From an uncultured delta proteobacterium (GTDB taxonomy: Bacteria > Desulfobacterota > RBG-13-43-22): a stretch of 64,000 nucleotides of DNA. Below the pieces are notes generated by a model. The model ran no database searches. It saw only the letters and a list, made by a program, of their open reading frames with translations, and was not told the DNA's origin. The stretch covers positions 796,663 to 860,662 of the forward strand of contig CAWBOS010000006.1 in the NCBI GenBank assembly GCA_963790475.1, given 5' to 3'. A program made the translations under genes and the position numbers. Of the stretch, positions 3,764-28,200 are shown piece by piece. Positions within the stretch are counted from its first letter, which is position 1, and each line of letters begins with the position of its first letter.

Positions 3764-4774
3764 GTGAGTAAAAAGATCTTAGTAGTAGTTGATGAAGAGA
3801 TCGATCGGAGGGTCATTCGACTTCATTTGGAGCGGGAAGGATGGATGGGGATCAAAGCAGTGGACGGGGTCGAGGCCCTGGGAATTCTGGAAAAGGAATC
3901 AATCGCCCTGGTGCTTTATGATATCAAGATGCCCGGGATGGACGGGATCACCTTTTTGACCCGAATAAAAGAAAAGGGGATTACGATCCCGGTGATCATG
4001 CTCTTGAGGTTTGTGGATATGGAAACAGTCACCCAAGTTCTACGAAAGGGGGCCTTTGATGTTCTGACCAAACCGATTCAGAGGGAGAGTTTGATCTTGG
4101 CAGTGAACCGGGGGGTGGAGTATCAGACGCTTTGGGAAGACAATAGAAGACTGAAAGAAGAAAATCAAAAATACCAAGAGAATCTGGAACAGGTTGAAAC
4201 GGTTTATCTGGAACTGGTCAAAACACTGGCCGAGGCCATCGAGACCAAAGATGCCTATACGCGGGGACACTGTGAACGGGTCCCTGAGTTTTCGCTTAAC
4301 ATAGCCAAAACCATGGGCCTTTCCCTTAATGAAATACGTGACATTCTCTTAGCCGGCATCCTCCATGATGTTGGAAAAATCGGCATTTCGGAAGCGATTT
4401 TGACCAAACCGGGTCCTTTGGATCAAAGGGAATGGGCGATGATTCAAGAGCACCCCGCCCTGGGACTTAACATCATTCAACATGTGGGCTTTCTGGGTAA
4501 AGCCCGGGAGATCATCGCCCAACATCATGAACGCTATGATGGGATGGGTTATCCCAAAGGATTGCAAGGGGAAGCCATACATCTGGGTGCCCGTATCCTG
4601 GCGGTGGCCGATTCTTATGATGCCATGAGTTCGGAACGTCCCTACCACCCGTCAATGAATAAGGAAACGATCATCAAAGAGATTCGTAAACAGGCAGGGC
4701 TCCAATTCGATCCCCGGGTTGTGGAAATTTTTTTAACCCTGTTAGCTCAAGAAGGAAAAGAAAAATTCGACTGA
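3764..4774 (+). CDS. Response regulator with HD-GYP cyclic dinucleotide phosphodiesterase domain
   Basis: REC domain (DIKMPGMDG, KP) followed by HDVGK and HHERYDGMGYP motifs. Confidence 0.92.
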   Translation: MSKKILVVVDEEIDRRVIRLHLEREGWMGIKAVDGVEALGILEKESIALVLYDIKMPGMDGITFLTRIKEKGITIPVIMLLRFVDMETVTQVLRKGAFDVLTKPIQRESLILAVNRGVEYQTLWEDNRRLKEENQKYQENLEQVETVYLELVKTLAEAIETKDAYTRGHCERVPEFSLNIAKTMGLSLNEIRDILLAGILHDVGKIGISEAILTKPGPLDQREWAMIQEHPALGLNIIQHVGFLGKAREIIAQHHERYDGMGYPKGLQGEAIHLGARILAVADSYDAMSSERPYHPSMNKETIIKEIRKQAGLQFDPRVVEIFLTLLAQEGKEKFD

Positions 4775-5136
4775 GTCCGGACGAATTTAAGGATTTGGTA
4801 AGCCGGGCCTTGGATGAAATCCCCGAGGAATTCCTGGAGAAGCTGGAGAATTTAGATATCTTCGTGGAAGAGGTCCCCTCCCCGGAATTATTGGAGGAAT
4901 TGGGTTTGACCGAGGAGGGCCTTCTTTTCGGATTGTATCAGGGCGTCCCCATTTCGGGAAAAAGTTTTTTCCAGGGCCAAAGCCTCCCGGACCGCATTAT
5001 AGTATTTCGACAGCCCATCCTTTCCATCTGCCGCACTGAAATTGATATCCTGCAACAAATTAAGAAGACCCTGATCCATGAAATAGCCCATCATTTCGGC
5101 CTGTCTGAAGCCAGGATACGTCATCTGGGGTATTAG
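4771..5136 (+). CDS. Zincin-like metallopeptidase (Zincin_1/DUF1025-type); start uncertain (CTG 4771 or TTG 4795)
   Basis: LFGLYQG, LPDRIIVFRQP and HEIAHHFG (HExxH) motifs. Confidence 0.85.
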   Translation: MSPDEFKDLVSRALDEIPEEFLEKLENLDIFVEEVPSPELLEELGLTEEGLLFGLYQGVPISGKSFFQGQSLPDRIIVFRQPILSICRTEIDILQQIKKTLIHEIAHHFGLSEARIRHLGY

Positions 5137-5166
5137 ACTCAACCTTAGTGGAACGATTCATTGGGC
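5137..5166 (-). other. Collapsed attC remnant closing the methyltransferase cassette
   Basis: Minus strand (CA)GCCCAAT (8/9 complement of the cassette start GTTGGGCTG) ... GTTGAGT (GTTRRRY), abutting the zincin stop. Confidence 0.5.
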
Positions 5167-5184
5167 TGTTCTTGTGCGTGCTGC

Positions 5185-5949
5185 TCATTTCTCTCCCCGT
5201 ATCATCCCCATAGTTCCCAAAATAAAAGGCGCTTTCAACAGGCGTGGGATAAAGGGCGAGTTTCTGGTTTGAATGAATTCCACATTGGCTATTCCCCAGC
5301 TCTTAATAGTGGTGATTAACGAGTCTATATCGCCGTACATATTCTTGATGAGGAACTCGTCTTGAAAAGCGAACCTGCCCCCTTTCTTAAGAACCCGCAA
5401 CGCTTCATGAATAACTTCACGTTTGTCTCTGACACCGCCGACCTCATGGAAGACGAAATTGCTCACCGCTGCATCGAAATACTCGTCAGCGAATGGCAAT
5501 GACGCGGCACTGCCTTTCTGGAACGCTACTCGGTTACTGACTCCCTCAATTGCCGCGTTGCGTTCACAGACCTTCATCGAGTAATCCCACTTCTTTCCCC
5601 AATAGTCTATTCCGAGGACGCGTGCCCTTCCGTGTCTCTGAGCCAGTTTGATGGCGAGGGCACCGTTCCCGCACCCTATGTCCAAGGCTCTCCCTTCTCC
5701 ATTCCAGTCTAAATGGTCTAACAGGAGCCTCCAAATGGATTCTTGCACATTTCCCGCTTTGGGAGAAAGCCTGAAACGAACATACGACAGAAAGGCAGCG
5801 ACCAGCAAAAAGAATACAGATGGAATCAACAGGAAAGACCATATCAGACTCGATGCCAGGAACAGGAGCGCTATTGCGAGGGGAACATAAATCATTAGTT
5901 TTGGTGTCCAATTGCCATAATCTGGATTCTCTCTGATCTGCCCGTTCAT
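5185..5949 (-). CDS. Class I SAM-dependent methyltransferase with N-terminal membrane helices (integron cassette)
   Basis: ALDIGCGNG motif I, SLPFADEYFD, LKKGG; starts just after attC R' GTTGGGC. Confidence 0.9.
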   Translation of the reverse strand: MNGQIRENPDYGNWTPKLMIYVPLAIALLFLASSLIWSFLLIPSVFFLLVAAFLSYVRFRLSPKAGNVQESIWRLLLDHLDWNGEGRALDIGCGNGALAIKLAQRHGRARVLGIDYWGKKWDYSMKVCERNAAIEGVSNRVAFQKGSAASLPFADEYFDAAVSNFVFHEVGGVRDKREVIHEALRVLKKGGRFAFQDEFLIKNMYGDIDSLITTIKSWGIANVEFIQTRNSPFIPRLLKAPFILGTMGMIRGEK

Positions 5950-5980
5950 ATGCTCCAGTCCTTCATGTTTATGTGTTGCA

Positions 5981-6037
5981 GCCCAACGTCTTCATTCAGC
6001 GGCCAGCGAAGCTGGTCCCTGGCACGAAATGTTAGGC
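5981..6037 (-). other. Integron attC site (57 bp)
   Basis: Minus strand GCCTAAC (RYYYAAC) ... central palindrome CCAGC-TTC-GCTGG ... GTTGGGC (GTTRRRY); TGCGGCCTAAC is the perfect 11 bp complement of the tsaA cassette start at 6510-6520. Confidence 0.85.
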
Positions 6038-6044
6038 CGCATCA

Positions 6045-6461
6045 TTATGAGTCTACTGATTGTGGGAGCACCGGCTTGATATCGACTACGGGCGTTCCAT
6101 CAATCGCTTCTACCGGTGTCACCTTTAATCTATTGCCAGCGATTTCGAGAACCGTAACTCGATGTAAGCCAAGTGGATTGGGTCTATCGGGAGACCGTGT
6201 CGCAAAGACGCCCGTCAGAGGCATGTTCTTGTCCCCGCGGGGGTGCAACTTCAATATGTCGCGATGAGCCTTATGAAACCATGTGATCAAAATAATTTCA
6301 TTGCCCGCTGCAATACCCTCAAGCCCCTCCGCAACCGTCGAATTTACTTCGAGCCAGGCATCGGGAGCACCTTCGTATCCCTGACGAGGTGCCGCTTCAG
6401 GATTCGTCAGTTCGGAGCGTATGACCCCTATGGGGTCGATCGTATAGATGGTTTCGGCCAT
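6045..6461 (-). CDS. tsaA: TsaA/TrmO-like SAM-binding protein (integron cassette)
   Basis: PIGVIRS, APRQG, GVFATRSPDRPNPLGL, DGTPVVDIKP motifs. Confidence 0.88.
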   Translation of the reverse strand: MAETIYTIDPIGVIRSELTNPEAAPRQGYEGAPDAWLEVNSTVAEGLEGIAAGNEIILITWFHKAHRDILKLHPRGDKNMPLTGVFATRSPDRPNPLGLHRVTVLEIAGNRLKVTPVEAIDGTPVVDIKPVLPQSVDS

Positions 6462-6517
6462 ATCTTTTTCCTATGAGATTGTCGTGCTTCTTCCTTCACC
6501 GCAGTAGATTGCGGCCT

Positions 6518-6650
6518 AACAAGTTATTCTAAAGTTCATAACTTGACAAATCTGAAGTTTCATTCGGTGAAATCAACCCCGTCCTTTGTTTTTTTTGATG
6601 ACATCAGGGTTGTTTAGCTCCTCAGATTCTTTGTAACCCATTATAAATGA
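6518..6650 (-). repeat. attI-like site, copy A
   Basis: Close homologue of 12404-12535; homology ends at the AAC/GTT where the tsaA cassette begins (GTTAGGC). Confidence 0.7.
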
Positions 6651-6687
6651 GGAGTATTTAAATAGAAATTGCGCAAAAGATCACTCT

Positions 6688-7026
6688 TCACCGGTGATTG
6701 GACACTGTGGGGGCAGGGACTAACGACGGCTTGCGATTGGTTGACTTCATTTTTTCAGGTTTCTCCATCCATGAAGGAAGTCTGGTTCCTGTTGCCTCCG
6801 CATAGAGGGTTTCGGGAGCGATATCGAGGTCATTGCCCCAGGTTAATACGCCGAGTTCTTTGTTAATCTGAAAAGCACGAAAATATTCGATGTTTTTAAA
6901 TTTTTTAAAGACACCGCCACGTTTTAAATATTTTGAAAAATCAACAACCCCGTGCTTGCCGTCATCGAAAAAAAGTTCTATTAAATAATCGCCTTTGTAC
7001 TCAGTACCGATAATATCATGAATCAT
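6688..7026 (-). CDS. DUF2442 domain protein (putative antitoxin), without its usual DUF4160 partner
   Basis: Y.IELFFDDG..GVVDF...GVF...LTW.N.LDIAPETLY pattern. Confidence 0.8.
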   Translation of the reverse strand: MIHDIIGTEYKGDYLIELFFDDGKHGVVDFSKYLKRGGVFKKFKNIEYFRAFQINKELGVLTWGNDLDIAPETLYAEATGTRLPSWMEKPEKMKSTNRKPSLVPAPTVSNHR

Positions 7027-7138
7027 GTTCTATCCTCAGCCCAAAACATAGCTTAGACGATTTTATTTTAACCCCTTCGCGTGGTCCGACCCCTATACCC
7101 CCATTTGGAATCATTCACGTCCACAGCTCGGCGGCAAA

Positions 7139-7435
7139 TTAGGGGTGAGCAAGGACCTGTATATCAGCAAGGCGTTTACCAATGTTCGCATTCGCGATTT
7201 TTAAGTCGTAAGACGCCTGAAGATTGAGCCAGTATTGCGGTGACTGGTTGAATACACACCCGAACAACAATGCCAGTTCCGCTGTCACCGGACGATCGCC
7301 CTTGACAACATGGGAAATCCGCATAGGCGATACCCCAATAGCACGCGCGAACTCAGCTTGAGATAACTTCATTTCACCTAAAATCTCTGCCAAGAACTCT
7401 CCTGGATGAATTGCAGGCAAACCATTTTCAACCGT
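7139..7435 (-). pseudogene. higA: HigA antitoxin copy 1 with start codon changed to ACG
   Basis: AIHPGEFL...HTH...YWLNLQASYDL; same length as 8413-8709, with ACG at 7433-7435 where copy 2 has ATG. Confidence 0.75.
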
Positions 7436-7462
7436 CTTTGTGTCTCCTTTAGTGATAATCAA

Positions 7463-7671
7463 GGATTTATATCAAGGAGTGCCCATATCGGGGAAAAGTT
7501 TTTTTTCAGGGACAGAGCCTTCCGGACTGGATCATCCTATTTCGACACCCCATCCTTTCAATCTGCCGCACTGAAAATGATATCCTGAAACAAATCAAGA
7601 AGACCCTGATCCATGAAATAGCCCATCACTTCGGCCTGACCGAGGCCCGGATACGTCATTTGGGGTATTAG
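7463..7671 (+). pseudogene. 3' fragment copy of the zincin gene
   Basis: Aligns by eye with ~4930-5136 through the HEIAHHFG codons to the same TATTAG end; contains indels. Confidence 0.9.
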
Positions 7672-7928
7672 AAGAATCGTTCATACTCGTTATGACTACC
7701 AACCCAGAACCACGTTAAGGTATCTTTATCCAGAACACCCAGGGCACGGTACCCAAGTGTAATCCTTACCGCCCAGATATTTTCATCCCGGTTTATGCAC
7801 TTAAAACGCAAAGAAGGATGAAAAGGATCGTCAGCCCAAAGACGATATGCCTTTTTGGCCTTGCCTCTGATTTGGCGATTGAGATTATGATAACGTTCCC
7901 AGAATGATGGTACTGTGGCAGATTTCAT
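7668..7928 (-). CDS. RelE/ParE-superfamily toxin
   Basis: DPFHPSLRFK, WAVRIT..YRALG, WFWVGSH.EYER pattern; 4 nt overlap with upstream partner. Confidence 0.8.
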   Translation of the reverse strand: MKSATVPSFWERYHNLNRQIRGKAKKAYRLWADDPFHPSLRFKCINRDENIWAVRITLGYRALGVLDKDTLTWFWVGSHNEYERFF

Positions 7929-8155
7929 AGCTTGTCGATATCCAAAGGGGTTGCCAGGCCCTCTGCAATTTCCTTACGTACTTGCCGAGCTGCTGTTACA
8001 AGATTGGTTTGAGTTCGGGAGAATGACTCATTCCACAATACTTCATCCCGAAGATCTTCGATGTATTCGCGTAAATGCTCGAGCACCCGATCCTGAGCTT
8101 GCGCCGGCAGTGTTTCAAGCATTTTAATGATTGTCATCGTTGCTTCTGAAGTCAT
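7925..8155 (-). CDS. Putative cognate antitoxin
   Basis: 76 aa acidic ORF with RBS AAGGAGG, translationally coupled to the toxin. Confidence 0.75.
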   Translation of the reverse strand: MTSEATMTIIKMLETLPAQAQDRVLEHLREYIEDLRDEVLWNESFSRTQTNLVTAARQVRKEIAEGLATPLDIDKL

Positions 8156-8179
8156 AGGTTCCTCCTTATGTTATCTATT

Positions 8180-8238
8180 TATCAACGAAAAGTTCACCGG
8201 GAGCGGTAGCGATCCGGTGGGATGAAGTATTGTGAGAT
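8180..8238 (-). other. Degenerate attC-like site preceding the TA cassette
   Basis: Minus strand ATCTCAC ... CACCGG/CCGGTG stem with central GCTACCGC ... GTTGATA; 59 bp; core boxes non-canonical. Confidence 0.5.
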
Positions 8239-8412
8239 TCATGACATTTTTTTAAAAGTATTTTGCTTAAGAGCCTTTTTTTGAAAGCAAAAAGGTGCCC
8301 TTAGCCAATTTCTTGCCTCCGTTTTCAGACAATTCTATTTTAACTCCTTCGCGTGGTCCGACTCCCCTATACCCCCATTTGGAATCATTCACGTCCACAG
8401 CTCGGCGGCAGA

Positions 8413-8709
8413 CTAGGCGTGGGCAAGGGCATGTATATCAGCAAGGCGTTTACCGATGTTCGCATTCGCGATTTTTAAGTCGTAAGACGCCTGAAGATTG
8501 AGCCAGTATTGCGGCGACTGGTTGAACACAAGCCCGAACAACAATGCCAGTTCCGCTGTCACCGGACGATCACCCTTGACAATATGAGAAATCCGCATAG
8601 GCGATATCCCGATAGCACGCGCGAACTCAGCTTGGGATAACTTCATTTCACCTAAGATCTCTGCCAAGAACTCTCCTGGATGAATTGCAAGCAAACCATT
8701 CTTAACCAT
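8413..8709 (-). CDS. higA: HigA antitoxin copy 2 (orphan)
   Basis: IHPGEFL, XRE HTH, WLNLQASYDL; RBS AAGGAG before ATG 8709. Confidence 0.88.
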   Translation of the reverse strand: MVKNGLLAIHPGEFLAEILGEMKLSQAEFARAIGISPMRISHIVKGDRPVTAELALLFGLVFNQSPQYWLNLQASYDLKIANANIGKRLADIHALAHA

Positions 8710-8722
8710 TTTTGTGTCTCCT

Positions 8723-8764
8723 TTAGTGATAGGAGACGATTTCAACATCATAAGCATCTCCGTC
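8723..8764 (-). pseudogene. higB: 3' remnant of HigB toxin
   Basis: Translates as DGDAYDVEIVSYH*, the typical HigB C-terminus; copy 1 keeps only DYH*. Confidence 0.7.
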
Positions 8765-8784
8765 GCTGCCTCTCGGTGAGGCAG

Positions 8785-8939
8785 GAAATAGGTCCTTCCC
8801 CTGAACTGTTAAAGGAATTGGGGATGTCCGACCGCGACCTTCTTTTCGGATTATATCAGGGAGTACCCATTTCGGGAAAATGTTTTTTCCAGGGCCAGAG
8901 CCTCCAGGACCGGATTATACTATTTCGACAACCTATCCT
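8785..8939 (+). pseudogene. Internal fragment copy of the zincin gene, cut next to the RAYT element
   Basis: PSPELLKELG...LLFGLYQGVPISGKCFFQGQSLQDRIILFRQPIL matches ~4870-5021. Confidence 0.9.
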
Positions 8940-8946
8940 ATAAAAT

Positions 8947-10017
8947 GGGACGTTGTTCACTTTATTCACTGTTGATAGTTTTTTGCCTCTATTCTTTTAA
9001 TGGCCATGGCCACTCCCGTAGTCCCAATTCCAACCAGGCGAGCGATTTCGGCCATTGGAATCCCGAGATCTCGGTTAAAATAGAAACAGAGTCTTTTCCG
9101 TAGTTCCGATACTGCTTTTCGTTGGCCCCCTGATATTAACTCGATTTCCTTGACCCCGGCTTCATGACATCTTTCTTTGATAATCTTCGATAACGATCCA
9201 GCTTTCTTTCGAGCTCGTATTTGGCGGGTCAACTTTTGATCTGCTTCTTCCAGAATTCCCTGGACGAAATCTCCATCTCCTAATATCCGTTCATCATAAG
9301 TCTCGGATTCGCCCTTCTTTCTTAGAGATAAAACTCGCGACCATCCCCCCAGACTCCGAATCAATCCGCCACCGACCAATTCTGGCCTTTGTCCAAGGCC
9401 CTTTCCTGCCGCCACAAATTCCCGGTAAGCTTGAACGGCCTTTCTCTTTTTGGACCCAAAAAACCCGAGCACAAAATCTTTTTCCTGAAAATCGTTTGTC
9501 CGCTTGCCGGATAAAATCCCGTGGCCGCACCAGGGGTAGTTTTCCAATTCTTCAAGATCATTAACCAATCTAGCCCTAAGAGGATTCAGGTGGATATATC
9601 GGACCAGTTCCAGAAGGTACGGATCCAGGTCACAAATAATTGATTTGTATCGGTTCTGAAACAGATGCCCGAATCTCCGATATTTCCGGTTATACCCAAT
9701 GGCATAACCGGTTAACAAACGTCGCATAAAGGTTGGAAGACCCGCCGGTCCGCTGATTAATAACAAATGGACATGATTATCCAACAGCGCCCAGGCCAAA
9801 ATAAGGGTTCCGGTTTCCTTAACCAAGGAATTGATCCTATCGAGAAAATCCTTTCGATCTTCCGCATCCTGGAAAATATTACTTCCTTCTATCCCTCGTA
9901 CCATAATATGGTGCAGGGTTCCGGGGATATCTAACCGAGCTTTTCGAGGCATAATTCTTTATAAACAGTTTTGCTCTTAATGTCAAAATTAATTGTGAAT
10001 TAAATGAACAACGTCCC
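8947..10017. mobile_element. Y1/RAYT transposase element bounded by 23 bp inverted repeats
   Basis: GGGACGTTGTTCACTTTATTCAC (8947-8969) versus GTGAATTAAATGAACAACGTCCC (9995-10017), 2 mismatches. Confidence 0.75.
8966..9952 (-). CDS. REP-associated tyrosine transposase (Y1_Tnp/RAYT) with C-terminal HTH
   Basis: MPRKAR..PG..HHIMVRG, HUH motif NHVHLL, GHLFQNRYKS, YIHLNP. Confidence 0.9.
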   Translation of the reverse strand: MPRKARLDIPGTLHHIMVRGIEGSNIFQDAEDRKDFLDRINSLVKETGTLILAWALLDNHVHLLLISGPAGLPTFMRRLLTGYAIGYNRKYRRFGHLFQNRYKSIICDLDPYLLELVRYIHLNPLRARLVNDLEELENYPWCGHGILSGKRTNDFQEKDFVLGFFGSKKRKAVQAYREFVAAGKGLGQRPELVGGGLIRSLGGWSRVLSLRKKGESETYDERILGDGDFVQGILEEADQKLTRQIRARKKAGSLSKIIKERCHEAGVKEIELISGGQRKAVSELRKRLCFYFNRDLGIPMAEIARLVGIGTTGVAMAIKRIEAKNYQQ

Positions 10018-10031
10018 CCTTTAGAGAAGCC

Positions 10032-12356
10032 TCAAACGCCTTCACGCAGTGTCCAGAACATCTCCCGCACTTGGTCATCCGTGACGAGGTCTTGCCGAAC
10101 GGGTATCCGGTCCCGCCAGTGCCCGCTGCCCTCTTCATGATTCCGCGATCCCTCTTCGCGCTCGGCGATATCCTCATCGAGCCGCCTAATCTCATACTCA
10201 AGATCGAGGCCGTACTCAGTACTGAGTCTGTCGAGTGACTCCCGCAGCCCTGTCAGCTCATCAACGGTCGTACAGTCGAAACGCTCATCCCTAGCGCCGT
10301 TCTGTACGTAGTGCCGAAGCGCCGTCTCTAGTTGCTTTTCATCGGCATCGCTCCATTCGAATGCCTTCGCGGGGAACGCGAGGAGGTCGAGCCAGTCGTC
10401 TGCCCTCGCGTAGTCGAGTGCATCTACGACCCCGGTCAAAAGCCTGCGGTACACTTCGTGCCCACCGTGGTCGAGGAACCAGCGATTCTCCGCAATCGCG
10501 GCCAGTAGGCGTAGCACTGGTCCGAAATCGACGCCCTGCTGCTCCCACTCTCGGACAAGTTTCCCCGCCAGTTGAGAGGCCATCGCGGCAAGCTGTGTTG
10601 AATTATGAACTGCGGCGATTTTCGCAAGGAACCCCACCTTGCCTTCATAGCTCATATCAATCGGGTAGCCCCTATGAGTACCGTCCGGCATCTTCTCCCA
10701 GCGCATGGAGGGGCCCTCCAGCAGGCGTGACAACGGTCGACAAAGAAGATCGGTATTCGTCGTTAGAACATTGCTGAGTTCGCTGTCAGGTTGGGCAGCG
10801 GCGAGTTCCCAGAGATTCACAATCTGCTTGAATCGAGCGGCCGAATTAAGAAGGTCTTCGGCGATTTCGCGCTCGTTGCTGATCATCGAGGCCACGAAGT
10901 CCCGAACAGAAGGGTTAAGGAAGCTCGCGTACCCCTTGCTATACGAGAGAAAGGCGCCTTCCAGCTCCTGAAGAGCCCGGTGGAAATCTCCTGCACGAAT
11001 CTGCTGATGGTACTTGGCGGCACTGTACCGGTGGAGCGCTATGAAGGCCGGTTCTAGGTCGACCGTATCCGACCATCCGCCGAACGTGTTGAAGCTGAGG
11101 AGAACGTGGCGCGCCGCGCCCGAGATTTGGTTGTGGAACGCGTGGGCCCAGATGGTGTCCGGTGACTCTATCAGGGCCAAGACGTGTGTCCTGTAGCTAT
11201 CCGCCGGAACTTGTCTCAGGCGCGAATAAGCTGATAGCCACTCGATCAGTCTAGGATTGAAGTGCTCGTGCTTGATAATATCGAGGAAGAAGTCCTCCTT
11301 CAGCAGTTCGTCTTTGTACTCCTGTGGGAGGTCACTGAAATAGAGATGGTTATAGAGAAGCCGGGCTCGGGTCCCATACGAATAGTCGCCCAGCTGGAGG
11401 ATGCAGCGATGGTCTAAGATCGGACTGTGGGCAAGCCGCTCCGAGATTTGGAGAGCCCCGCTCAGGATATGTTCCCGCGTAGTGAGAATGAATCGAGACT
11501 GGGGGGACCGGCGGACCATCTCCATGAAATCCACCATCGCTGTATCTTGATTTCTGCCAAGGTATTCGCGGCGGTCGCCCAAGAATGTCTGGCCGAGGAA
11601 GTCGTCGTAGTAGAAGATTTGCTTGCGCGCGGACTTGAAGAGATCCTTCGCCTCGGAAATCTCCGCTTTGATCGCGACCGGCTCGTATCCGTCTTCCAAA
11701 TGTGAGTAGAGGAGCATCTCGGCCAGTGTGGTCTTGCCGATCCCTGGGGGGCCCGTCACAACGACAATGCGGGTTTCGTTGAGGATCTCAGTCGCCCGCG
11801 GGTAAGCATCGCTCTTGACGAACAGAGGAAGCTTGCGACGTAGGCGATCAACCTCGAAATCTGTCTGGCACAACGTTGCATTGTGAAGCACTCGATCGAG
11901 AACGCTCGTGCTGGTGAGCCATAGTTTAAAGTTGGCGCGCTCGACCTCCGAATGGCGGCTGAGCAGGCCTTCGATATCGTCTGCGCCGAGGACGTCCCGA
12001 ACACTCAACACGAACGGCTGAAGCGCTGTGACGATTTCGTCCTTATTGCCGGGAGTGAGGCTGACAGAGGTTGCTACCACATAACGGGTCGGGCCCAAGC
12101 GCTGGATCTTTGGGAGTTCTCCGGCACGCAGATTCGCCAGCAACTTGGCGAACCCAGAGTTCGCGAAGTGCTTGCACTGGATGATTGTCGCACCATCGTC
12201 TGCCGGCGCATACCGCAAGTCGATCCCACGATCACGGCCGCTGCGGAAGGCTTCGAGCGCGATCTTCCACTCCGCCTGTAGAAGATCGCGGATCAACTCC
12301 TCAAAGTCCTGACCTGAGAGAGATTTGAAGTCGTAACGTGGCATTCGCTGCACCAT
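10032..12356 (-). CDS. Mrr-like restriction endonuclease fused to an nSTAND3-like P-loop NTPase (putative anti-phage protein; first cassette after attI copy B)
   Basis: N-terminal DFEELIRDLL...DRGID...IIQCK (PD-QxK); Walker A GPPGIGKT; Walker B YYDDFLG; FILTTRE, FNPRLIE; visibly GC-richer than flanks. Confidence 0.85.
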   Translation of the reverse strand: MVQRMPRYDFKSLSGQDFEELIRDLLQAEWKIALEAFRSGRDRGIDLRYAPADDGATIIQCKHFANSGFAKLLANLRAGELPKIQRLGPTRYVVATSVSLTPGNKDEIVTALQPFVLSVRDVLGADDIEGLLSRHSEVERANFKLWLTSTSVLDRVLHNATLCQTDFEVDRLRRKLPLFVKSDAYPRATEILNETRIVVVTGPPGIGKTTLAEMLLYSHLEDGYEPVAIKAEISEAKDLFKSARKQIFYYDDFLGQTFLGDRREYLGRNQDTAMVDFMEMVRRSPQSRFILTTREHILSGALQISERLAHSPILDHRCILQLGDYSYGTRARLLYNHLYFSDLPQEYKDELLKEDFFLDIIKHEHFNPRLIEWLSAYSRLRQVPADSYRTHVLALIESPDTIWAHAFHNQISGAARHVLLSFNTFGGWSDTVDLEPAFIALHRYSAAKYHQQIRAGDFHRALQELEGAFLSYSKGYASFLNPSVRDFVASMISNEREIAEDLLNSAARFKQIVNLWELAAAQPDSELSNVLTTNTDLLCRPLSRLLEGPSMRWEKMPDGTHRGYPIDMSYEGKVGFLAKIAAVHNSTQLAAMASQLAGKLVREWEQQGVDFGPVLRLLAAIAENRWFLDHGGHEVYRRLLTGVVDALDYARADDWLDLLAFPAKAFEWSDADEKQLETALRHYVQNGARDERFDCTTVDELTGLRESLDRLSTEYGLDLEYEIRRLDEDIAEREEGSRNHEEGSGHWRDRIPVRQDLVTDDQVREMFWTLREGV

Positions 12357-12403
12357 CCCCGGGCATTATGTCACGGGATACCTACTCGTGTGCGGTCGCC
12401 GAG

Positions 12404-12535
12404 AACAAGTTGTTCTAAGGTTTTCGTATAACTTGACAAATCAAAAGTTTCGTGAAATCAACCCCCGATCCTTTGTTTTTTGATGACATCAGGGTTGCCT
12501 AACTCTTCAGATTCTTTGTAACTCATTATAAATGA
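12404..12535 (-). repeat. attI-like site, copy B
   Basis: Homologue of 6518-6650 sharing CATAACTTGACAAATC-like block, TGATGACATCA palindrome and CATTATAAATGA; diverges right after GTT. Confidence 0.7.
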
Positions 12536-12553
12536 TAAATATTATCATAACAA
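12525..12553 (-). promoter_or_regulatory. Candidate cassette promoter overlapped by a Fur-box-like palindrome
   Basis: Minus strand TTGTTA-N17-TATAAT; ATGATAAATATTATCAT at 12532-12548. Confidence 0.4.
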
Positions 12554-12657
12554 CTGTATAATATTGCTTAAAATTTGAGGCAGGTATATTCTTCAAAACA
12601 ACATGATATACAGAAATAGATGGATTCATCCTTCTGGTTGTACCTTTTCCTTGGTAG

Positions 12658-13632
12658 CTATTCCCGCTCAAACGGTTTCCCAAGACCTGAGGGAGGGGCC
12701 AGGCGCAGGAATCCGGCCAGGGACCTGCCGATCGGTCCTGGTAAGAGTTCCACCACTCGTTCCAGTCTTTGATTACTTACCAGGGCCAGGACGACGATCA
12801 TGAAAACAAAAGGAGCCACCTGAAAGACCTGGATGGGCATTGAAGGTAATACCCCCTGAAGGAGGATACCCAGGGATTGAAGCCCGCCGAACAGATAGGT
12901 GCCCAGTGCTGCTTTGAAGGGATGCCAGCCGCCGAAGATGACGATGGCCAGGGCGATCCAGCCGATCCCCAGGGTATGCTGATAACTCCATCCCAGCTTG
13001 ACGCTCAAGGAAAAATTGGCCCCGGCCAGGCCCACTAGGCTTCCGCCGATCAGGGTGTAAAGGTAGCGGACACCTCTGACAGAAATCCCCCGGGCATAGG
13101 CCGCTTCCGGGCGTTCACCCACCCCGCGCATGGCCAGGCCCGGTCCGGTCTTGAATATCCAGAACCAGGCCAGAAATATCAGTAGAAAACTGCCATAGGT
13201 AAACAGGTTATGGTTAAAGAAGAGAGGACCCAGAACCGGTATGTCTTTTAAAATCGGTATGGCCAGGTGCGGCATCTCCGGCCCGGGTTTTCGGACAAAG
13301 GGGTTCCCCAGGAAGGAACTGAGATCGGTGGCCAGCAAAGTCATAATGAACCCCACCGCCACCTGATCTTGACGGAGTTCGATACCGGCCACTACCACAA
13401 TGAGGGCGACCAGGGCCCCAATCCCCATGGCCGACAAGAGGCCAAGGACCAGGCTGCCTGAGCCATAGGCCACGGCAAATCCGGTCATGGCCGAAAGCAA
13501 AATACTTCCGTCCAGGGAAAGGTTGATGACCCCGGCCTTCTCGGTTATGGTCTCCCCGATGCAGGCATAGACCAGAGGAGATGAATCAGCCAGGATGGAG
13601 GCCAGCATCCGTATCAGAAAATCCCAGTCCAT
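12658..13632 (-). CDS. BMP/nucleoside-type ABC transporter permease
   Basis: GETITEKAGVINLSLDG, GERPEAA, GWIALAIVIFGGW. Confidence 0.92.
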   Translation of the reverse strand: MDWDFLIRMLASILADSSPLVYACIGETITEKAGVINLSLDGSILLSAMTGFAVAYGSGSLVLGLLSAMGIGALVALIVVVAGIELRQDQVAVGFIMTLLATDLSSFLGNPFVRKPGPEMPHLAIPILKDIPVLGPLFFNHNLFTYGSFLLIFLAWFWIFKTGPGLAMRGVGERPEAAYARGISVRGVRYLYTLIGGSLVGLAGANFSLSVKLGWSYQHTLGIGWIALAIVIFGGWHPFKAALGTYLFGGLQSLGILLQGVLPSMPIQVFQVAPFVFMIVVLALVSNQRLERVVELLPGPIGRSLAGFLRLAPPSGLGKPFERE

Positions 13633-13700
13633 ATTTTAGTCCCTTGAGTAAATCAACATCAACAAAGCTTTGTCGATCAGATCCTAAAATCCTCTTTCCT

Positions 13701-13779
13701 GTCACCCCGGCGAAAGCCAGGGTCCAGTCCCGCCAAGGCTAAATTAAATTCCTGGATTCCGGGTCAAGCCCGGAATGAC
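13701..13779. repeat. REP-like palindrome doublet
   Basis: GTCACCCCGGCGAAAGCCAGGGTCCAG ... CTGGATTCCGGGTCAAGCCCGGAATGAC. Confidence 0.7.
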
Positions 13780-13921
13780 GAAAAGGTGCTTTTGTTTTTT
13801 AAACAACGTCGTCTACCTTGAAGTTGAACCGTTTACAATTTCAAAAAGGTGTAATAAGAAAACAGGATTCGAGATTCATCCTTCGATTATTCCTATTTTC
13901 ATGCATTGTGGTGTCACGCCC

Positions 13922-14980
13922 CTAAGCGGGGTATGACGGTTTGGTGTGTTTCTGCCTCCACACCCTGGCCTGTATTCCTCGGGCCAGGATGACGAAAAGG
14001 ACTAAAGCTTCCTGCAGGACCCCTCCCAATGAGGAATCGATGTGCATGACCATCGGTAATTGGAGACTGCCCTTATTGGCGGCCGCAAAGAAAAAGGCCA
14101 CCGGGGCGATCCAGAGGGTCTGATTCCCGGTCAGCAGGACCACCAGGATAGCCAGGTAGCCGTACCCGCTGGAAATCGAGGGGACTAAACGATGATACAG
14201 TCCGATGGCTTGAATGGCGCCGGCCGCGCCAGCCAAGGCCCCGGCCAGCCCAAAGGCCAGGAGGATATTCCTTTCCACCTTTAGACCCAGAAAGAAGGAA
14301 GCGGAAGGATTATTACCCACGGCCTTCAGTTTGAGGCCCCACATGGTACCCCGCAGGGCAAACACCGACCCCAAAATAGCCAACCCGGCCAGGATTATCT
14401 CCACCGGCCCTAAAGACAGGTTGAAAAGACCGGGAAGCAGGGCGGAAGATCGAAAAAACTCTGTCCCGCTCATGGTGGCCGTTCCGGGTTGTTTCCAGGG
14501 GCCGAAGATGAGAAAGTTTGTGGCCCCCACGGCCACAAAATTGAGTCCCAAACCGGCGAATATCTCATGCACCCGGCCGTAGATCCGCAGAAAGCCGGTC
14601 AGGCAGGCCCAGAGAGCACCACCGGCCATGCCGGAAAGGATTATCAAAGGGATGAGCCCATAGGAGGGCAGGTCTAAGGACCTGGCCGCCCAGGTCGCGC
14701 CAATCGCCCCCATAATCATCTGCCCCTCTATTCCTATATTCCAAAGGCCGGCGGCAAAGGTGAAGGACAAACCAACGGCACATAAAACCAAAGGCACCCA
14801 GGCCACAAAAACATCGGCCCATTTATTGACACTGCCGAAGGCCCCCTTGAGCATATTCCCATAGGCCTCGATCGGCGAGGCCCCCATGGCTACTAAAATC
14901 ACCATGGTAAAGAGCAGGGCCAGGGCAACAGCTAGAGTGATCATGACCCAGGGGGCTGAGTGGTTCCTTGGAGGCGTCAT
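13922..14980 (-). CDS. BMP/nucleoside-type ABC transporter permease
   Basis: AGLWNIGIEGQ, AVGNNPSAS; many TM segments. Confidence 0.92.
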   Translation of the reverse strand: MTPPRNHSAPWVMITLAVALALLFTMVILVAMGASPIEAYGNMLKGAFGSVNKWADVFVAWVPLVLCAVGLSFTFAAGLWNIGIEGQMIMGAIGATWAARSLDLPSYGLIPLIILSGMAGGALWACLTGFLRIYGRVHEIFAGLGLNFVAVGATNFLIFGPWKQPGTATMSGTEFFRSSALLPGLFNLSLGPVEIILAGLAILGSVFALRGTMWGLKLKAVGNNPSASFFLGLKVERNILLAFGLAGALAGAAGAIQAIGLYHRLVPSISSGYGYLAILVVLLTGNQTLWIAPVAFFFAAANKGSLQLPMVMHIDSSLGGVLQEALVLFVILARGIQARVWRQKHTKPSYPA

Positions 14981-25221: not shown

Positions 25222-28200
25222 TTATTTTCTTATACCTGTAAACTTGGTTTTAAAACTCCTATCCGATCCATAGGTGGTTCCAGCACTATTGGTAGCTACA
25301 AGGCGGTAATGATATACGGTATAAGAACTCAGTCTGGTAATACCGGCAGACACCGCCATATTGCTTGTGCCGCTTCCAGATGAGGTAACGGTCGTGTTAT
25401 TACCATAAGAAGTAGTCCGCCCCCACTGAAAAACATAAGTCGTGGATAAGCCGTTGGGATTGACCGTCCCGTTCAGAGTGGCGGAACTCCAGGGTACCAA
25501 GGTGGCTGAGCCGGTTACGACCATAGGCTGATTTATTCCCGTACTTAAACTAAAGGTTGCGGTAACACTCACATTCGCGTTCATGGTCACCTGGCAGGTA
25601 GTCGACATCCCGGAACAGCCGCCTGACCAACCGTTGAATACGGAATTGGAATCCGGTGAGGTCGTCAAGGTGACGGCAGTGCCGGAAGGAAAGGTGGTCC
25701 CGGTCGGATTGACGGAAACACTTCCGCTCCCCGTCCCGACTTTGCTTACTGTTAGGGTATAATTGGTAATGGTAGAAAATGTTGCGCTTATAGTATGGTT
25801 GGCGCTAACCGCAGAGAAAGTATAGGAAGCAATCGCCCCCTGAGACACTTCGTCCACGGTTACATTGGCAATCTTGTAACCGGCATTGGCTGCGATCGTA
25901 AAGGTCTGGTTAGCCCCGGACTGGACACTGATCCCTCCCGAGGGAGAAATAGCCCCGCCCGTTCCGGCCGTGGCGGTGATGGTGTAGATTTGGTTGTTGT
26001 TATTGGTAAAACTTTTATCTACTCCATAGGTGGTCCCTGCACTGTTGGTGGCCTTAAGGCGATAATGATAAACGGTATTAGACCTCAGCCTGGTTATATT
26101 GGCCGAAGAGGCGACATCGCTTGTGCCGCTTCCGACCGTGGTAACGGCCGTGGTACTACCGTAAGAAGTGGTCCGCCCCCATTGAAAAACATAGGTCGTG
26201 GATAAACCCTTTGGATTGACTGTACCGTTCAACTGGGCGGAACTTGAGGGTATCAATGTGGCTGATCCGGTAACAACTGTCGGTGGATTAGTTGCCGTAC
26301 TGGAATTGAATATCGCGGTAACACTCACATTCGCGTTCATGGTCACCTGGCAGGTAGTCGACATCCCGGAACAGCCGCCTGACCAACCGTTGAATACGGA
26401 ATTGGAATCCGGTGATGCTGTCAGGGTGACCTGGGTGCCGGCGGGAAAGGAGGTTCCGGTGGGGTTGGAAGAGACACTGCCGCTTCCCGTCCCGGCATTG
26501 GTTATTGTAAGAGTGTATGTGTTGGAAACAAATGACGCAACGATAGTATGGTTGGCGTTTACGGTCGAGAAGGTATAAGAACTGATTGCTCCCCGAGAAA
26601 CGCGGTCCACAGTCAGGTTGGCAATCTTGTAACCGGCATTGGCTGCGATCGTAAAGGTCTGGTTAGCCCCGGACTGGACACTGATCTCTCCCGAGGGAGA
26701 AATAGCCCCGCCCGTTCCGGCCGTGGCGGTGATGGTGTAGATTTGGTTGTTGTTATTGGTAAAACTTTTATCTACTCCATAGGTGGTCCCTGCACTGTTG
26801 GTGGCCTTAAGGCGATAATGATAAACGGTATTAGACCTCAGCCTGGTTATATTGGCCGAAGAGGCGACATCGCTTGTGCCGCTTCCGGCCGGGGTAACGG
26901 CCGTGGTACTACCGTAAGAAGTGGTCCGCCCCCATTGAAAAACATAGGTCGTGGATAAACCCTTTGGATTGACTGTACCGTTCAACTGGGCGGAACTTGA
27001 GGGTATCAATGTGGCTGAGCCGGTAGCGACCATGGGCGGATTTAATACAGCGCTGAAGGTTGCGGTAACACTCACGTTCGAGTTCATGGCCACCTGACAG
27101 GTGGTCGTGCTCCCGGAACAGGCCCCCGACCAGCCTCCGAAGGTGGAATTGGCGTCAGGTGCGGCAGTCAAGGTGACTTTGGTGCCGGCCGGAAAAGAGG
27201 ATCCGGTAGGGTCGGTAACAACACTACCGCTGCCCGTCCCATTTTTGAATATGTTCAGGGTATAGTTGGGAATGGTTGCGAAGGTTGCGTTGATAGTATG
27301 GTTGGCGGCCACCGTTTGAAAAGTGTAAGAGGTGATCGCCCCTTGGGATACGCTGTCTACCAGGACACTGGAAATTGTATAGCCGGAATTAGGGGCGATG
27401 GTAAAGCTTTGATTGGCCCCGGACTGGACACTAACCCCCCCCGAGGGAGAAATGGTTCCGCCGGTTCCGGCCGAAGCGGTGATGGTGTAGGTTTTAAGGT
27501 TGAAAGTTGCCGTGACGGAGACAATGGAATTCATCATTACCTGACAGGTAGTCGAATTCCCGGAACAACCGCCGCCGGACCAGCCGCTGAATACGGAATT
27601 GGCATCCGGTAAGGCGGTTAGGGTAACCTGCGTCCCGGAGGAAAAGCTGGCCCCCGTCGGACTGGTCGAAACCGTGCCGCTGCCCGTCCCATTTTTGAAT
27701 ATGTTCAGGTTATAGTTGGGAATGGTCGTAAAGGTCGCGCTTATGGTGTGATTAGCAGTCACCCCTGTGAAGGTGTAAGAGGAGATCACCCCTTGGGATG
27801 CGCCATCGACCAGGACGTTGGAAATTGTATAGCCGGAATTAGGGGCGATGGTAAAGCTTTGATTGGCCCCGGATTGGACATTGGTCACCCCCGATGGGGA
27901 AATGGATCCACCCGTTCCGGCCGAGGCGGTGATGGTGTAGGTCTTAAGGTTGAAAGTTGCCGTGACGGAGACAATGGAATTCATCATTACCTGACAGGTA
28001 GTCGAATTCCCGGAACAACCGCCGCCGGACCAGCCGCTGAATACGGAATTGGCATCCGGTAAGGCGGTTAGGGTAACCTGCGTCCCGGAGGAAAAGCTGG
28101 CCCCCGTCGGACTGGTCGAAACCGTGCCGCTGCCCGTCCCATTTTTGAATATGTTCAGGTTATAGTTGGGAATGGTCGTAAAGGTCGCGCTTATGGTGTG

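Follow-up and report, generated by a model that had tools for sequence, protein, structure and literature searches.

An integron in its textbook form has one integrase, one attI site and one promoter, and expression fades along its cassette array. The attI1 site of class 1 integrons is laid out as a set of integrase-binding boxes, DR1, DR2, L and R; to our knowledge, attI sites outside the clinical classes are generally unknown. The stretch of DNA considered here, a window of 64,000 nucleotides from the genome of an uncultured delta proteobacterium (G000; the window is G000:C6:796663-860662), holds two copies, A and B, of a repeated element that resembles an attI site joined to a cassette promoter (Pc). 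Region 5137-12652, whose genes all lie on the minus strand, is best explained as a chromosomal integron without its integrase gene, intI, in which copy B would be the original platform, copy A a second attI embedded in the array, and cassettes would have been exchanged after the loss by an integrase (IntI) from outside. A probability of about 78% is assigned to this explanation. Set against the textbook plan, attI is present in about 29 copies in a single genome, is mostly intI-less across the family, and is kept where cassettes change.

Several described systems share part of this organization. The term CALIN denotes attC sites in a cluster that has no integron integrase (Cury et al. 2016, PMC4889954). 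Like CALINs, the present region has two attC matches 2.1 kb apart and no intI nearby, the attC being called by the covariance model R2 introduced below and not by the IntegronFinder model. Unlike CALINs, which are defined by attC alone, it keeps an attI, a cassette promoter and an intI relic, so that the array can still be expressed and could capture cassettes. A complete integron in the IntegronFinder sense consists of intI and at least one attC, and G000, in which no intI was found, does not hold one. Attachment sites derived from attI also replace attC within the arrays of integrons belonging to classes 1 and 2, as delta-attI-type cassettes (PMC12901181), and comparable sites are seen here in attI-A behind a DUF2442 gene, in a 22-nt end within an array on contig C12, and in 10-nt ends within an array of the related genome G004. 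In that report such cassettes are rare, have sites of mostly 14-18 nt, and belong to clinical mobile integrons that retain intI, whereas the sites described here range from full-length, with promoter, to short and are chromosomal, numerous and mostly far from intI. The same source describes attI1-ORF-attI1 units (ORF, open reading frame) that are excised and inserted by IntI1, a mobility that offers a possible route for attI multiplication. Degenerate sedentary integrons such as those of Xanthomonas and Treponema (10.1101/2025.06.18.660453, PMC3607928) likewise occupy a fixed chromosomal locus at which intI decays and the array persists; they have one platform per genome, and no multiplied attI sites are met in the available portions of those reports. 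An array that outlives its intI (CALIN, PMC4889954) and the rare occurrence of attI-derived sites within arrays are thus already known.

The initial annotation had marked two homologous sequences of about 130 bp in the window. Both are present: in a BLAST search against G000, copy B (12404-12535) matches copy A (6518-6650) at 83% identity (E 4.8e-33), and the homology extends further on the far side than claimed, to about 6672 in A and about 12556 in B. On the plus strand it starts at AAC (6518-6520 and 12404-12406), which is GTT on the gene strand, and this sharp edge, at which the similarity had been said to stop exactly, recurs in 11 of 11 full copies in G000. Directly after copy A the minus strand reads GTTAGGCCGCA (plus strand 6510-6520), and an exact 11-nt complement lies 479 nt further on the same strand, right after the TrmO_N-domain gene (plus strand 6031-6041). 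It is the sole such complement within 6 kb downstream of copy A, where the chance expectation by our own arithmetic is about 0.0014, and it opens a 57-nt site, GCCTAAC...GTTGGGC (5981-6037, minus strand). The proposed perfect complementarity between the junction of copy A and the R'' box of an attC is thereby borne out. Copy B had been described as followed directly by an Mrr-STAND gene, and its GTT does lie 47 nt from the start codon of a gene for an Mrr_cat + nSTAND3 protein. The two copies are not the separate platforms first proposed, since copy A lies 5.9 kb downstream of copy B in the same array and orientation; B heads a single array and A is embedded within it. A and B are 81% alike, and B is 62-79% alike to its own positional counterparts in relatives, which suggests that sequence may have been exchanged or converted between sites. 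Metagenome joints from 6536 to about 12500 were seen in four DNA runs, on short contigs with sides of 20-22 nt; they most likely come from other copies in other organisms and were not used. No RNA run that contains the sequence is listed.

Junctions in a related genome show where cassettes begin. In the intI-linked array L073, the element ends in GTTAGCGAG; the first cassette ends in CTCGCTAAC with an attC closing GTTGGGC, a 9-nt complement, and the second in AGCCCAAC...GTTACGT. By these junctions the last G/TT of the element is the cassette insertion point, which defines attI. All the DNA collected yielded 59 testable, non-redundant attI ends. An inverted junction 7-mer follows within 2.5 kb downstream in 17 of the 59, against 6.4 expected with random tails, and in 15 of those 17 the match extends to 8-11 nt, so that other copies of the repeat also end at GTT/cassette junctions. 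An 8-nt junction match for the copy at C10:1812k was rejected, as it lies 3.4 kb away, has no R' and looks like chance.

The attC sites are supported by R2, a covariance model built from nine sites that all lie in other genomes; RNAalifold recognises both an R box and an L box in it, and three pairs are compensatory. Run on the 64-kb window with filters off and E <= 1, it matches in exactly two places, which fall within the array and on its strand, the minus strand. One of them, at 5979-6039 (24.4 bits, with a rough E of 7.5e-4), covers the attC that had been placed at 5981-6037. The site has paired ends of the RYYYAAC...GTTRRRY type, an L box and a hairpin fold. Across the whole of G000, at E <= 0.01, R2 gives 11 matches, 5 of which fall within 3.4 kb downstream of a same-strand attI-like end (chance estimate about 0.1). 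Applied to the other arrays it finds four sites in L073 (one being a training site), three in G004, one in G011 and none in G012. Two scans that combine motif and structure were of different use: a relaxed motif-plus-hairpin scan returned 582 matches, mostly in coding DNA, and was unusable, and a strict motif-plus-fold scan returned 52 scattered matches, including the attC of cassette 1.

All full copies of the element share one architecture. In gene orientation a promoter, TTGTCA-N17-TATAAT, is followed by about 125 nt with a variable middle and then by a conserved end, ...AGTTATAC-AGAAACTTTAGAATAAC-TT-GTT. The −35, spacer and −10 make up the best conserved block in an alignment of 36 copies, and a palindrome, GATAA-N3-TTATC, lies inside the spacer in every full copy. 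In copy B this palindrome is overlapped by a second, Pint-like promoter that points towards the place where relatives have intI, and it may act as an operator; a Fur-type or LexA-type operator was among the ideas set aside. The attI region of copy B, about 125 nt long, closes with the boxes AGTTATAC ... GAATAAC-TT-G/TT, so that an inverted box, GAATAAC, stands 2 nt before GTT, and direct boxes of the GTTA type occur near −30 and where the transcript begins. With its AAC-ending inverted box 2 nt before GTT and its direct GTTA-type boxes upstream, the element agrees with the layout of attI1, and IntI binding and recombination are predicted to take place at it. A different pair of signals had been emphasized at first, a TTGACA (6543-6548 and 12433-12438) and a TGATGACATCA palindrome (6597-6607, also in B); both are present, but neither is conserved in the 36-copy alignment, and the conserved promoter pair sits at the opposite end of the element. 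Two other views of the element were discarded. It is not a large attC, as its two ends lack the kind of complementarity that an attC has, and a pseudo-core at its 5' side (AATAATTTGT vs AATAACTTGT) is not a second crossover point, as the edge of homology lies about 12 nt outside it.

Immediately before the attI boxes, columns 112-160 of the 36-copy alignment (window 6540-6585 and 12425-12470) form a strong hairpin in about half of the copies, each time of differing sequence, with stems such as CUUCUCU/AGAGAAG and CCUCCCC/GGGGAGG; the hairpin is weak in both A and B. An all-against-all column scan finds pairings mainly between the repeated GTTA-type boxes, which are read as binding-site repeats, not as an RNA fold. 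On contig C10, at 875008, a compact copy has the TTGTCA-N17-TATAAT promoter joined straight to the last 14 nt of the attI end.

The element, roughly 160 bp long, forms a large family. A profile search of G000 finds 11 full-length copies (E <= 2e-25) and additional shorter matches. Where the initial annotation had counted just two attI sites, profile matches that include the GTT end, taken together with exact 11-mers of that end, give 29 attI-like ends, 11 full and about 18 shortened. A few of those recognised by the 11-mer alone may be chance, with 13 observed and 2.3 expected; the 13-mer AGAATAACTTGTT occurs 10 times where 0.1 is expected. Copies within a genome differ by 20-40% but share the same conserved blocks, and many retain only the last 40-70 nt, with the promoter absent. 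R1, a sequence-only covariance model of the element, finds it in 21 of 61 sampled genomes, among them 12 of the 13 from the same genus and 17 of the 20 from the same family; the highest number of matches in a single genome is 26. Copy numbers are highest in G000 (26 matches), G008 (25) and G005 (21), all three without intI. An exact 20-mer of the element end occurs in 71 stretches of a species-representative collection, nearly all of them metagenome bins, labelled Syntrophaceae, Syntrophales, Smithella, Desulfobacterales, Desulfomonilia or 'delta proteobacterium'. The 20-mer is also found in a few records from outside Desulfobacterota (L088, L094, L141 from Psychromonas, L090 and L143 from Algoriphagus, and L119 from a Methanobacterium bin), in which the rest of the element has no profile match and no intI lies within the fetched stretch; chance, misbinning or transfer could account for them.

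The genes that follow the copies are mutually unrelated and often of defence type. They encode a TrmO_N-domain protein, the Mrr-nSTAND3 protein, a staphylococcal-nuclease/HhH protein, a full Mrr, a zinc-ribbon protein, a DUF2283 protein and an S4 protein; several of the ORFs have no Pfam match, and a SAVED + SMODS pair of the CBASS type lies shortly downstream of one copy. Nine of the 11 full copies have an ORF of at least 60 codons starting no more than 75 nt downstream on the same strand, and in the remaining two a ribosome-binding site and an ATG follow at 15-20 nt. Several attI can also stand in one array in the same orientation, as at the C12 locus, where three full copies accompany the 22-nt end, and in the G004 array the 10-nt ends directly follow stop codons. 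Such a multi-copy, dispersed element with a strong conserved promoter, genes starting close downstream, hairpins of varied sequence in its central part and a consistent 5' edge in seven copies could also be taken for a promoter-plus-leader RNA module that is mobile in its own right, either a regulatory RNA or a small non-autonomous repeat, and that lies near intI in some genomes by happenstance. The single match in an Rfam scan of 4000-14000 at E <= 1 is to a snoRNA and at chance level; RNAalifold derives no consensus structure from the 36-copy alignment and only a 7-pair terminal hairpin from an alignment of 11 copies. Copies that have lost the promoter, junctions of GTT and cassette, the attC sites, and a placement relative to intI that is the same in four species, with the intI leader conserved, also speak against an RNA module, which is very improbable.

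The placement beside intI ties the element to a particular integrase. The integron-integrase model TIGR02249, with a cut-off of 265 bits, scores above that cut-off in 6 of the 21 family genomes. Seven intI loci were fetched, and at four of them (G002:C47, G001:C166, G007:C174 and G004:C14; 354-386 bits) the element directly adjoins intI, at a distance from its start of about 100 nt at most, and faces away from the gene; the other three have a different intI type and lack the element. The four linked genes, termed type A, are 485-491 codons long and have a conserved leader with AGGAGG before the ATG. Judged by its sequence and position, the element is shown to be the attI/Pc region of a type A IntI known from related genomes. 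Shared with a canonical platform are a divergent intI beside the element in relatives, back-to-back promoters, and a crossover at G/TT followed by cassette starts of the RRRY type. The platform differs from the canonical one in that G000 is without intI, the site measures about 125 nt and its middle is variable and often hairpin-forming, its sequence is conserved across many species and several Desulfobacterota orders, and dozens of copies occur per genome where the canonical platform has one attI. The type A proteins of L071 (5246-6703), L072 (2544-4019) and L075 (12403-13977) begin with a conserved N-terminal extension of about 170 residues, starting MLAIPS, that has no Pfam match (Pfam coverage is residues 173-470) and is unusual for IntI.

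A copy of the repeat therefore adjoins intI in relatives, in the canonical divergent position, and in G000 only relics do. Neither copy in the window has an integrase gene, as had been annotated: Pfam finds none in region 5137-12553. Behind copy B, what aligns with the intact intI leaders of relatives is a relic that ends 6 nt short of the ABC permease stop codon, and the copy at C10:587k retains about 50 codons of intI. In most of the other copies, A among them, homology is lost some 10 nt beyond the −35. Copy B is read as the head of an integron whose intI was deleted, because it keeps Pc, the Pint-like promoter and the intI leader with a few mutated first codons. Adjacent tyrosine-recombinase genes with weak TIGR02249 matches occur at three loci of G000 (C10:824457-826020, C13:39964-41528 and C13:166296-167859).

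A comparison of the same locus in four species bears on what happened after intI was lost. ABC permease orthologues 92-97% identical to that of the window occur in 3 of the 20 other family genomes, G004, G011 and G012, and in each the element lies about 100 nt behind the permease. The order ABC permease, attI-B, variable array, Zincin_1 is common to all four, and the conserved genes beyond Zincin_1 resume behind a variable stretch that ranges from 1.6 kb in G012 to 8.4 kb in G004. The locus has no intI in G004, G011 or G012; G004 has two intI genes elsewhere, one of type A. The first cassettes take three forms in the four genomes, diverging at GTT or 1-2 nt after it. In G000, GTT/CTCGGCG leads into the Mrr-nSTAND3 gene; G004 has ATTA/CTTAAAA; and G012 has GTTA/GAAGCA followed by a NYN/OST-HTH gene whose end carries TTCTAAC. 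G011 has the same first gene as G012 and has lost the attI part between GGTTA and TTGTTA. For copy A, too, G011 holds a positional counterpart, which follows the same DUF2442 gene and precedes a different first cassette. An intI-less site at one locus with differing cassettes implies that the attI-B site persisted with a changing load once the local intI had gone. This comparison of four loci is the main support for service in trans, and it is comparative and not proof of a mechanism. The deletion in G011 is precise: in L081 (G011:C27, oriented 1179-1242) attI is missing from GGTTA, at the transcript start, to TTGTTA, at the crossover, and the promoter is fused to the first cassette. Recombination between two GTTA boxes could have produced it.

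The retention of the element at one locus in four species, promoter and terminal boxes included, while the DNA after GTT differs, is difficult to reconcile with the view that the copies are dead relics. In that view they would descend from many integrons, or from segmental duplications of one decayed integron, with no recombination since intI was lost and with the differences made by deletion and horizontal transfer. Relics would account for the lack of a detected intI in G000, for the intI remnants beside two copies, for the duplicated fragments of neighbouring genes in some copy flanks (the C12 array, and Zincin_1/HTH fragments in the window), for the decayed promoter of copy A, and for a cassette hallmark at only 17 of 59 attI ends. 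They would not be expected to diverge to the extent seen within genomes and still hold the same blocks, which argues for selection, nor does copy number track integron number, the three most copy-rich genomes being without intI. Dead relics are accordingly considered unlikely.

In the preferred explanation, an intI-less integron whose cassettes continued to be exchanged, cassettes would enter at G/TT through attI x attC recombination by IntI and be transcribed from Pc. After the local intI was lost, an IntI from elsewhere would have gone on exchanging them; it could be encoded in a second integron, as in G004, or arrive on a mobile element. In intI-less G000 the attI-like sites, roughly 29 in number, would now be idle docking sites equipped with promoters. 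The initial annotation had proposed solo attI docking sites that captured cassettes independently and formed a distributed integron. The identity of the sites as attI, the adjacency to intI in relatives and the turnover of cassettes agree with it; two platforms do not, as there is one array. Nor does service in trans by a resident enzyme hold for G000: no intI was found in its assembly, which makes such service impossible there, with the proviso that the assembly is a metagenome bin of 20 contigs with 9.7% contamination, from which an intI may have been missed. A broader version can be put forward tentatively, in which a distributed integron operates in this Desulfobacterota clade: a module of about 160 bp, attI with Pc, multiplies and moves, with attI-type cassettes as its main mode, and provides 20-30 docking sites with their own promoters, often before defence genes, that are served in trans by one resident IntI or by an IntI arriving only transiently on mobile DNA. 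Such an arrangement would explain why the most copy-rich genomes are without intI.

Several observations weigh against the integron explanation set out above. The best TIGR02249 score in the whole G000 assembly is 105 bits against the cut-off of 265, and tblastn for intI finds only Xer-like relatives and one short intI relic, so that nothing can act on the sites of G000 now. An exact junction complement with an attC is found for 1 of the 11 full copies in G000, copy A only, and behind the Mrr-nSTAND3 gene, the first load of copy B, no attC is recognised, with R2 included. The training sites of R2 were picked by the junction rule; the model is independent of the window and not of the hypothesis, and its E values are rough. 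The attC at 5979-6043 has an unremarkable folding energy (z −1.2 and −2.4). A promoter scan of copy A yields nothing above threshold, the attI reading leaves the variable and often hairpin-forming middle of the element unexplained, and the differences among species could stem from deletions or from routes of transfer other than IntI.

What appears to be new, and was not found in print, is an attI-promoter module that can be recognised by sequence, occurs family-wide and beyond, has dozens of mostly intI-less copies per genome, and occupies fixed loci with cassette turnover. The literature searched, supplements and most full texts aside, holds no report of dispersed intI-less attI sites. The scatter of some two dozen sites suggests that gene capture is distributed through the genome and not confined to a single place. 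Provided that the sites work in trans, cassettes would be taken up and expressed at many promoter-equipped positions, and surveys for intI or attC alone would miss much of the system. The conserved attI sequence is in any case a probe with which anaerobic sediment bacteria can be searched for integron platforms and for the cassettes these carry, which are often defence-type or of unknown function. The features of the array are collected in Table 1.

Table 1. Features of the intI-less array and its flank, in window coordinates; R1 and R2 are the covariance models of the element and of attC, and E values of R2 are rough.
Feature	Position	Strand	Basis and remarks
ABC permease gene, conserved flank	12658-13632	−	With Zincin_1, brackets the variable array in four species
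Relic of intI 5' leader and first ~7 codons	~12557-12652	+	Alignment with intact intI leaders of L071, L072 and L075; ATG changed to CTT
attI-B/Pc module	12404-12556	−	R1 96.6 bits; putative crossover G/TT at 12406/12405; heads the cassette array
Pc-like promoter, TTGTTA-17-TATAAT	12525-12553	−	Promoter scan 10/12; directed into the cassettes; transcript predicted to start near 12518, about 7 nt past TATAAT
Pint-like promoter, TTGTAA-18-TATTAT	12516-12545	+	Promoter scan 9/12; directed to where intI of relatives lies
Mrr_cat + nSTAND3 NTPase gene, defence-type	10032-12356	−	Pfam; first gene after attI-B
REP-associated tyrosine transposase (RAYT)-like Y1 unit	8947-10017	−	Pfam Y1_Tnp; gene 8966-9952
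attC upstream of toxin-antitoxin cassette	8178-8237	−	R2 26.1 bits, E 2.8e-4
Toxin-antitoxin cassette	7668-8155	−	Pfam; antitoxin 7925-8155, ParE-like toxin 7668-7928
DUF2442 gene	6688-7026	−	Pfam; directly upstream of attI-A; gene also in G004 and G011 arrays
attI-A module, inside the array	6518-6672	−	R1 91.8 bits; putative crossover 6520/6519; −35 region degenerated
Cassette 1 of attI-A, TrmO_N-domain gene	6045-6519	−	Pfam; gene 6045-6461; starts TTAGGCCGCA
attC of cassette 1, GCCTAAC...GTTGGGC	5979-6043	−	R2 24.4 bits, E 7.5e-4; hairpin fold; strict motif-plus-fold scan
Cassette 2, class I SAM methyltransferase gene	5185-5949	−	Pfam
Truncated attC, GCCCAAT...GTTGAGT, array end	5137-5166	−	Read from the sequence; abuts the stop codon of Zincin_1 (4795-5136, plus strand)

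Read from 12652 to 5137 on the minus strand, the array runs from attI-B through the Mrr-nSTAND3 gene, the Y1 transposase, a Zincin_1 fragment with a helix-turn-helix (HTH) module, the first attC, the antitoxin and ParE-like toxin genes, a second Zincin_1 fragment with HTH, DUF2442, attI-A, the TrmO_N-domain gene, the second attC, the methyltransferase and the truncated attC to the stop codon of Zincin_1. The Mrr-nSTAND3 gene is present in 1 of the 21 family genomes, G000 itself. The toxin-antitoxin genes have a copy 88-92% identical in the G011 array. The DUF2442 gene leading into attI-A, an ORF followed by an attI-derived site, resembles the layout of a delta-attI-type cassette. The start of the methyltransferase cassette follows a different first cassette in L108. 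The truncated attC has a 5' half resembling an attC of L073; it does not fold and has no R2 match.

The Y1 unit is flanked by 16-bp inverted repeats at 10002-10017 and 8947-8962 (GGGACGTTGTTCATTT / AAGTGAACAACGTCCC). The intI-linked array of L073 (G007; 8334-9320 plus flanks) holds a unit that is 82% identical and has identical flanks, and the unit may be mobile and move about within integron arrays. The transposase has 328 residues and is IS200-like with a DnaA-type HTH tail.

Two modules of HTH and partial Zincin_1 lie inside the array, at 7055-7672 and 8327-8943, and are 84-94% alike (the sequence recurs at 4876-5137); no attC is seen at the edges of these modules. Beyond the array, between two ABC permease genes, 13700-13790 holds a short GC-rich palindromic repeat (CCCCGGCGAAAGCCAGGG, CCGGGTCAAGCCCGG). 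Metagenome contigs stack on it with summed depths above 600-1200, so this small repeat is very widespread. At 25251-29369, tandem repeats of 450 and 750 nt that are 62-90% alike follow one another in a long run, presumably within a large repetitive gene.

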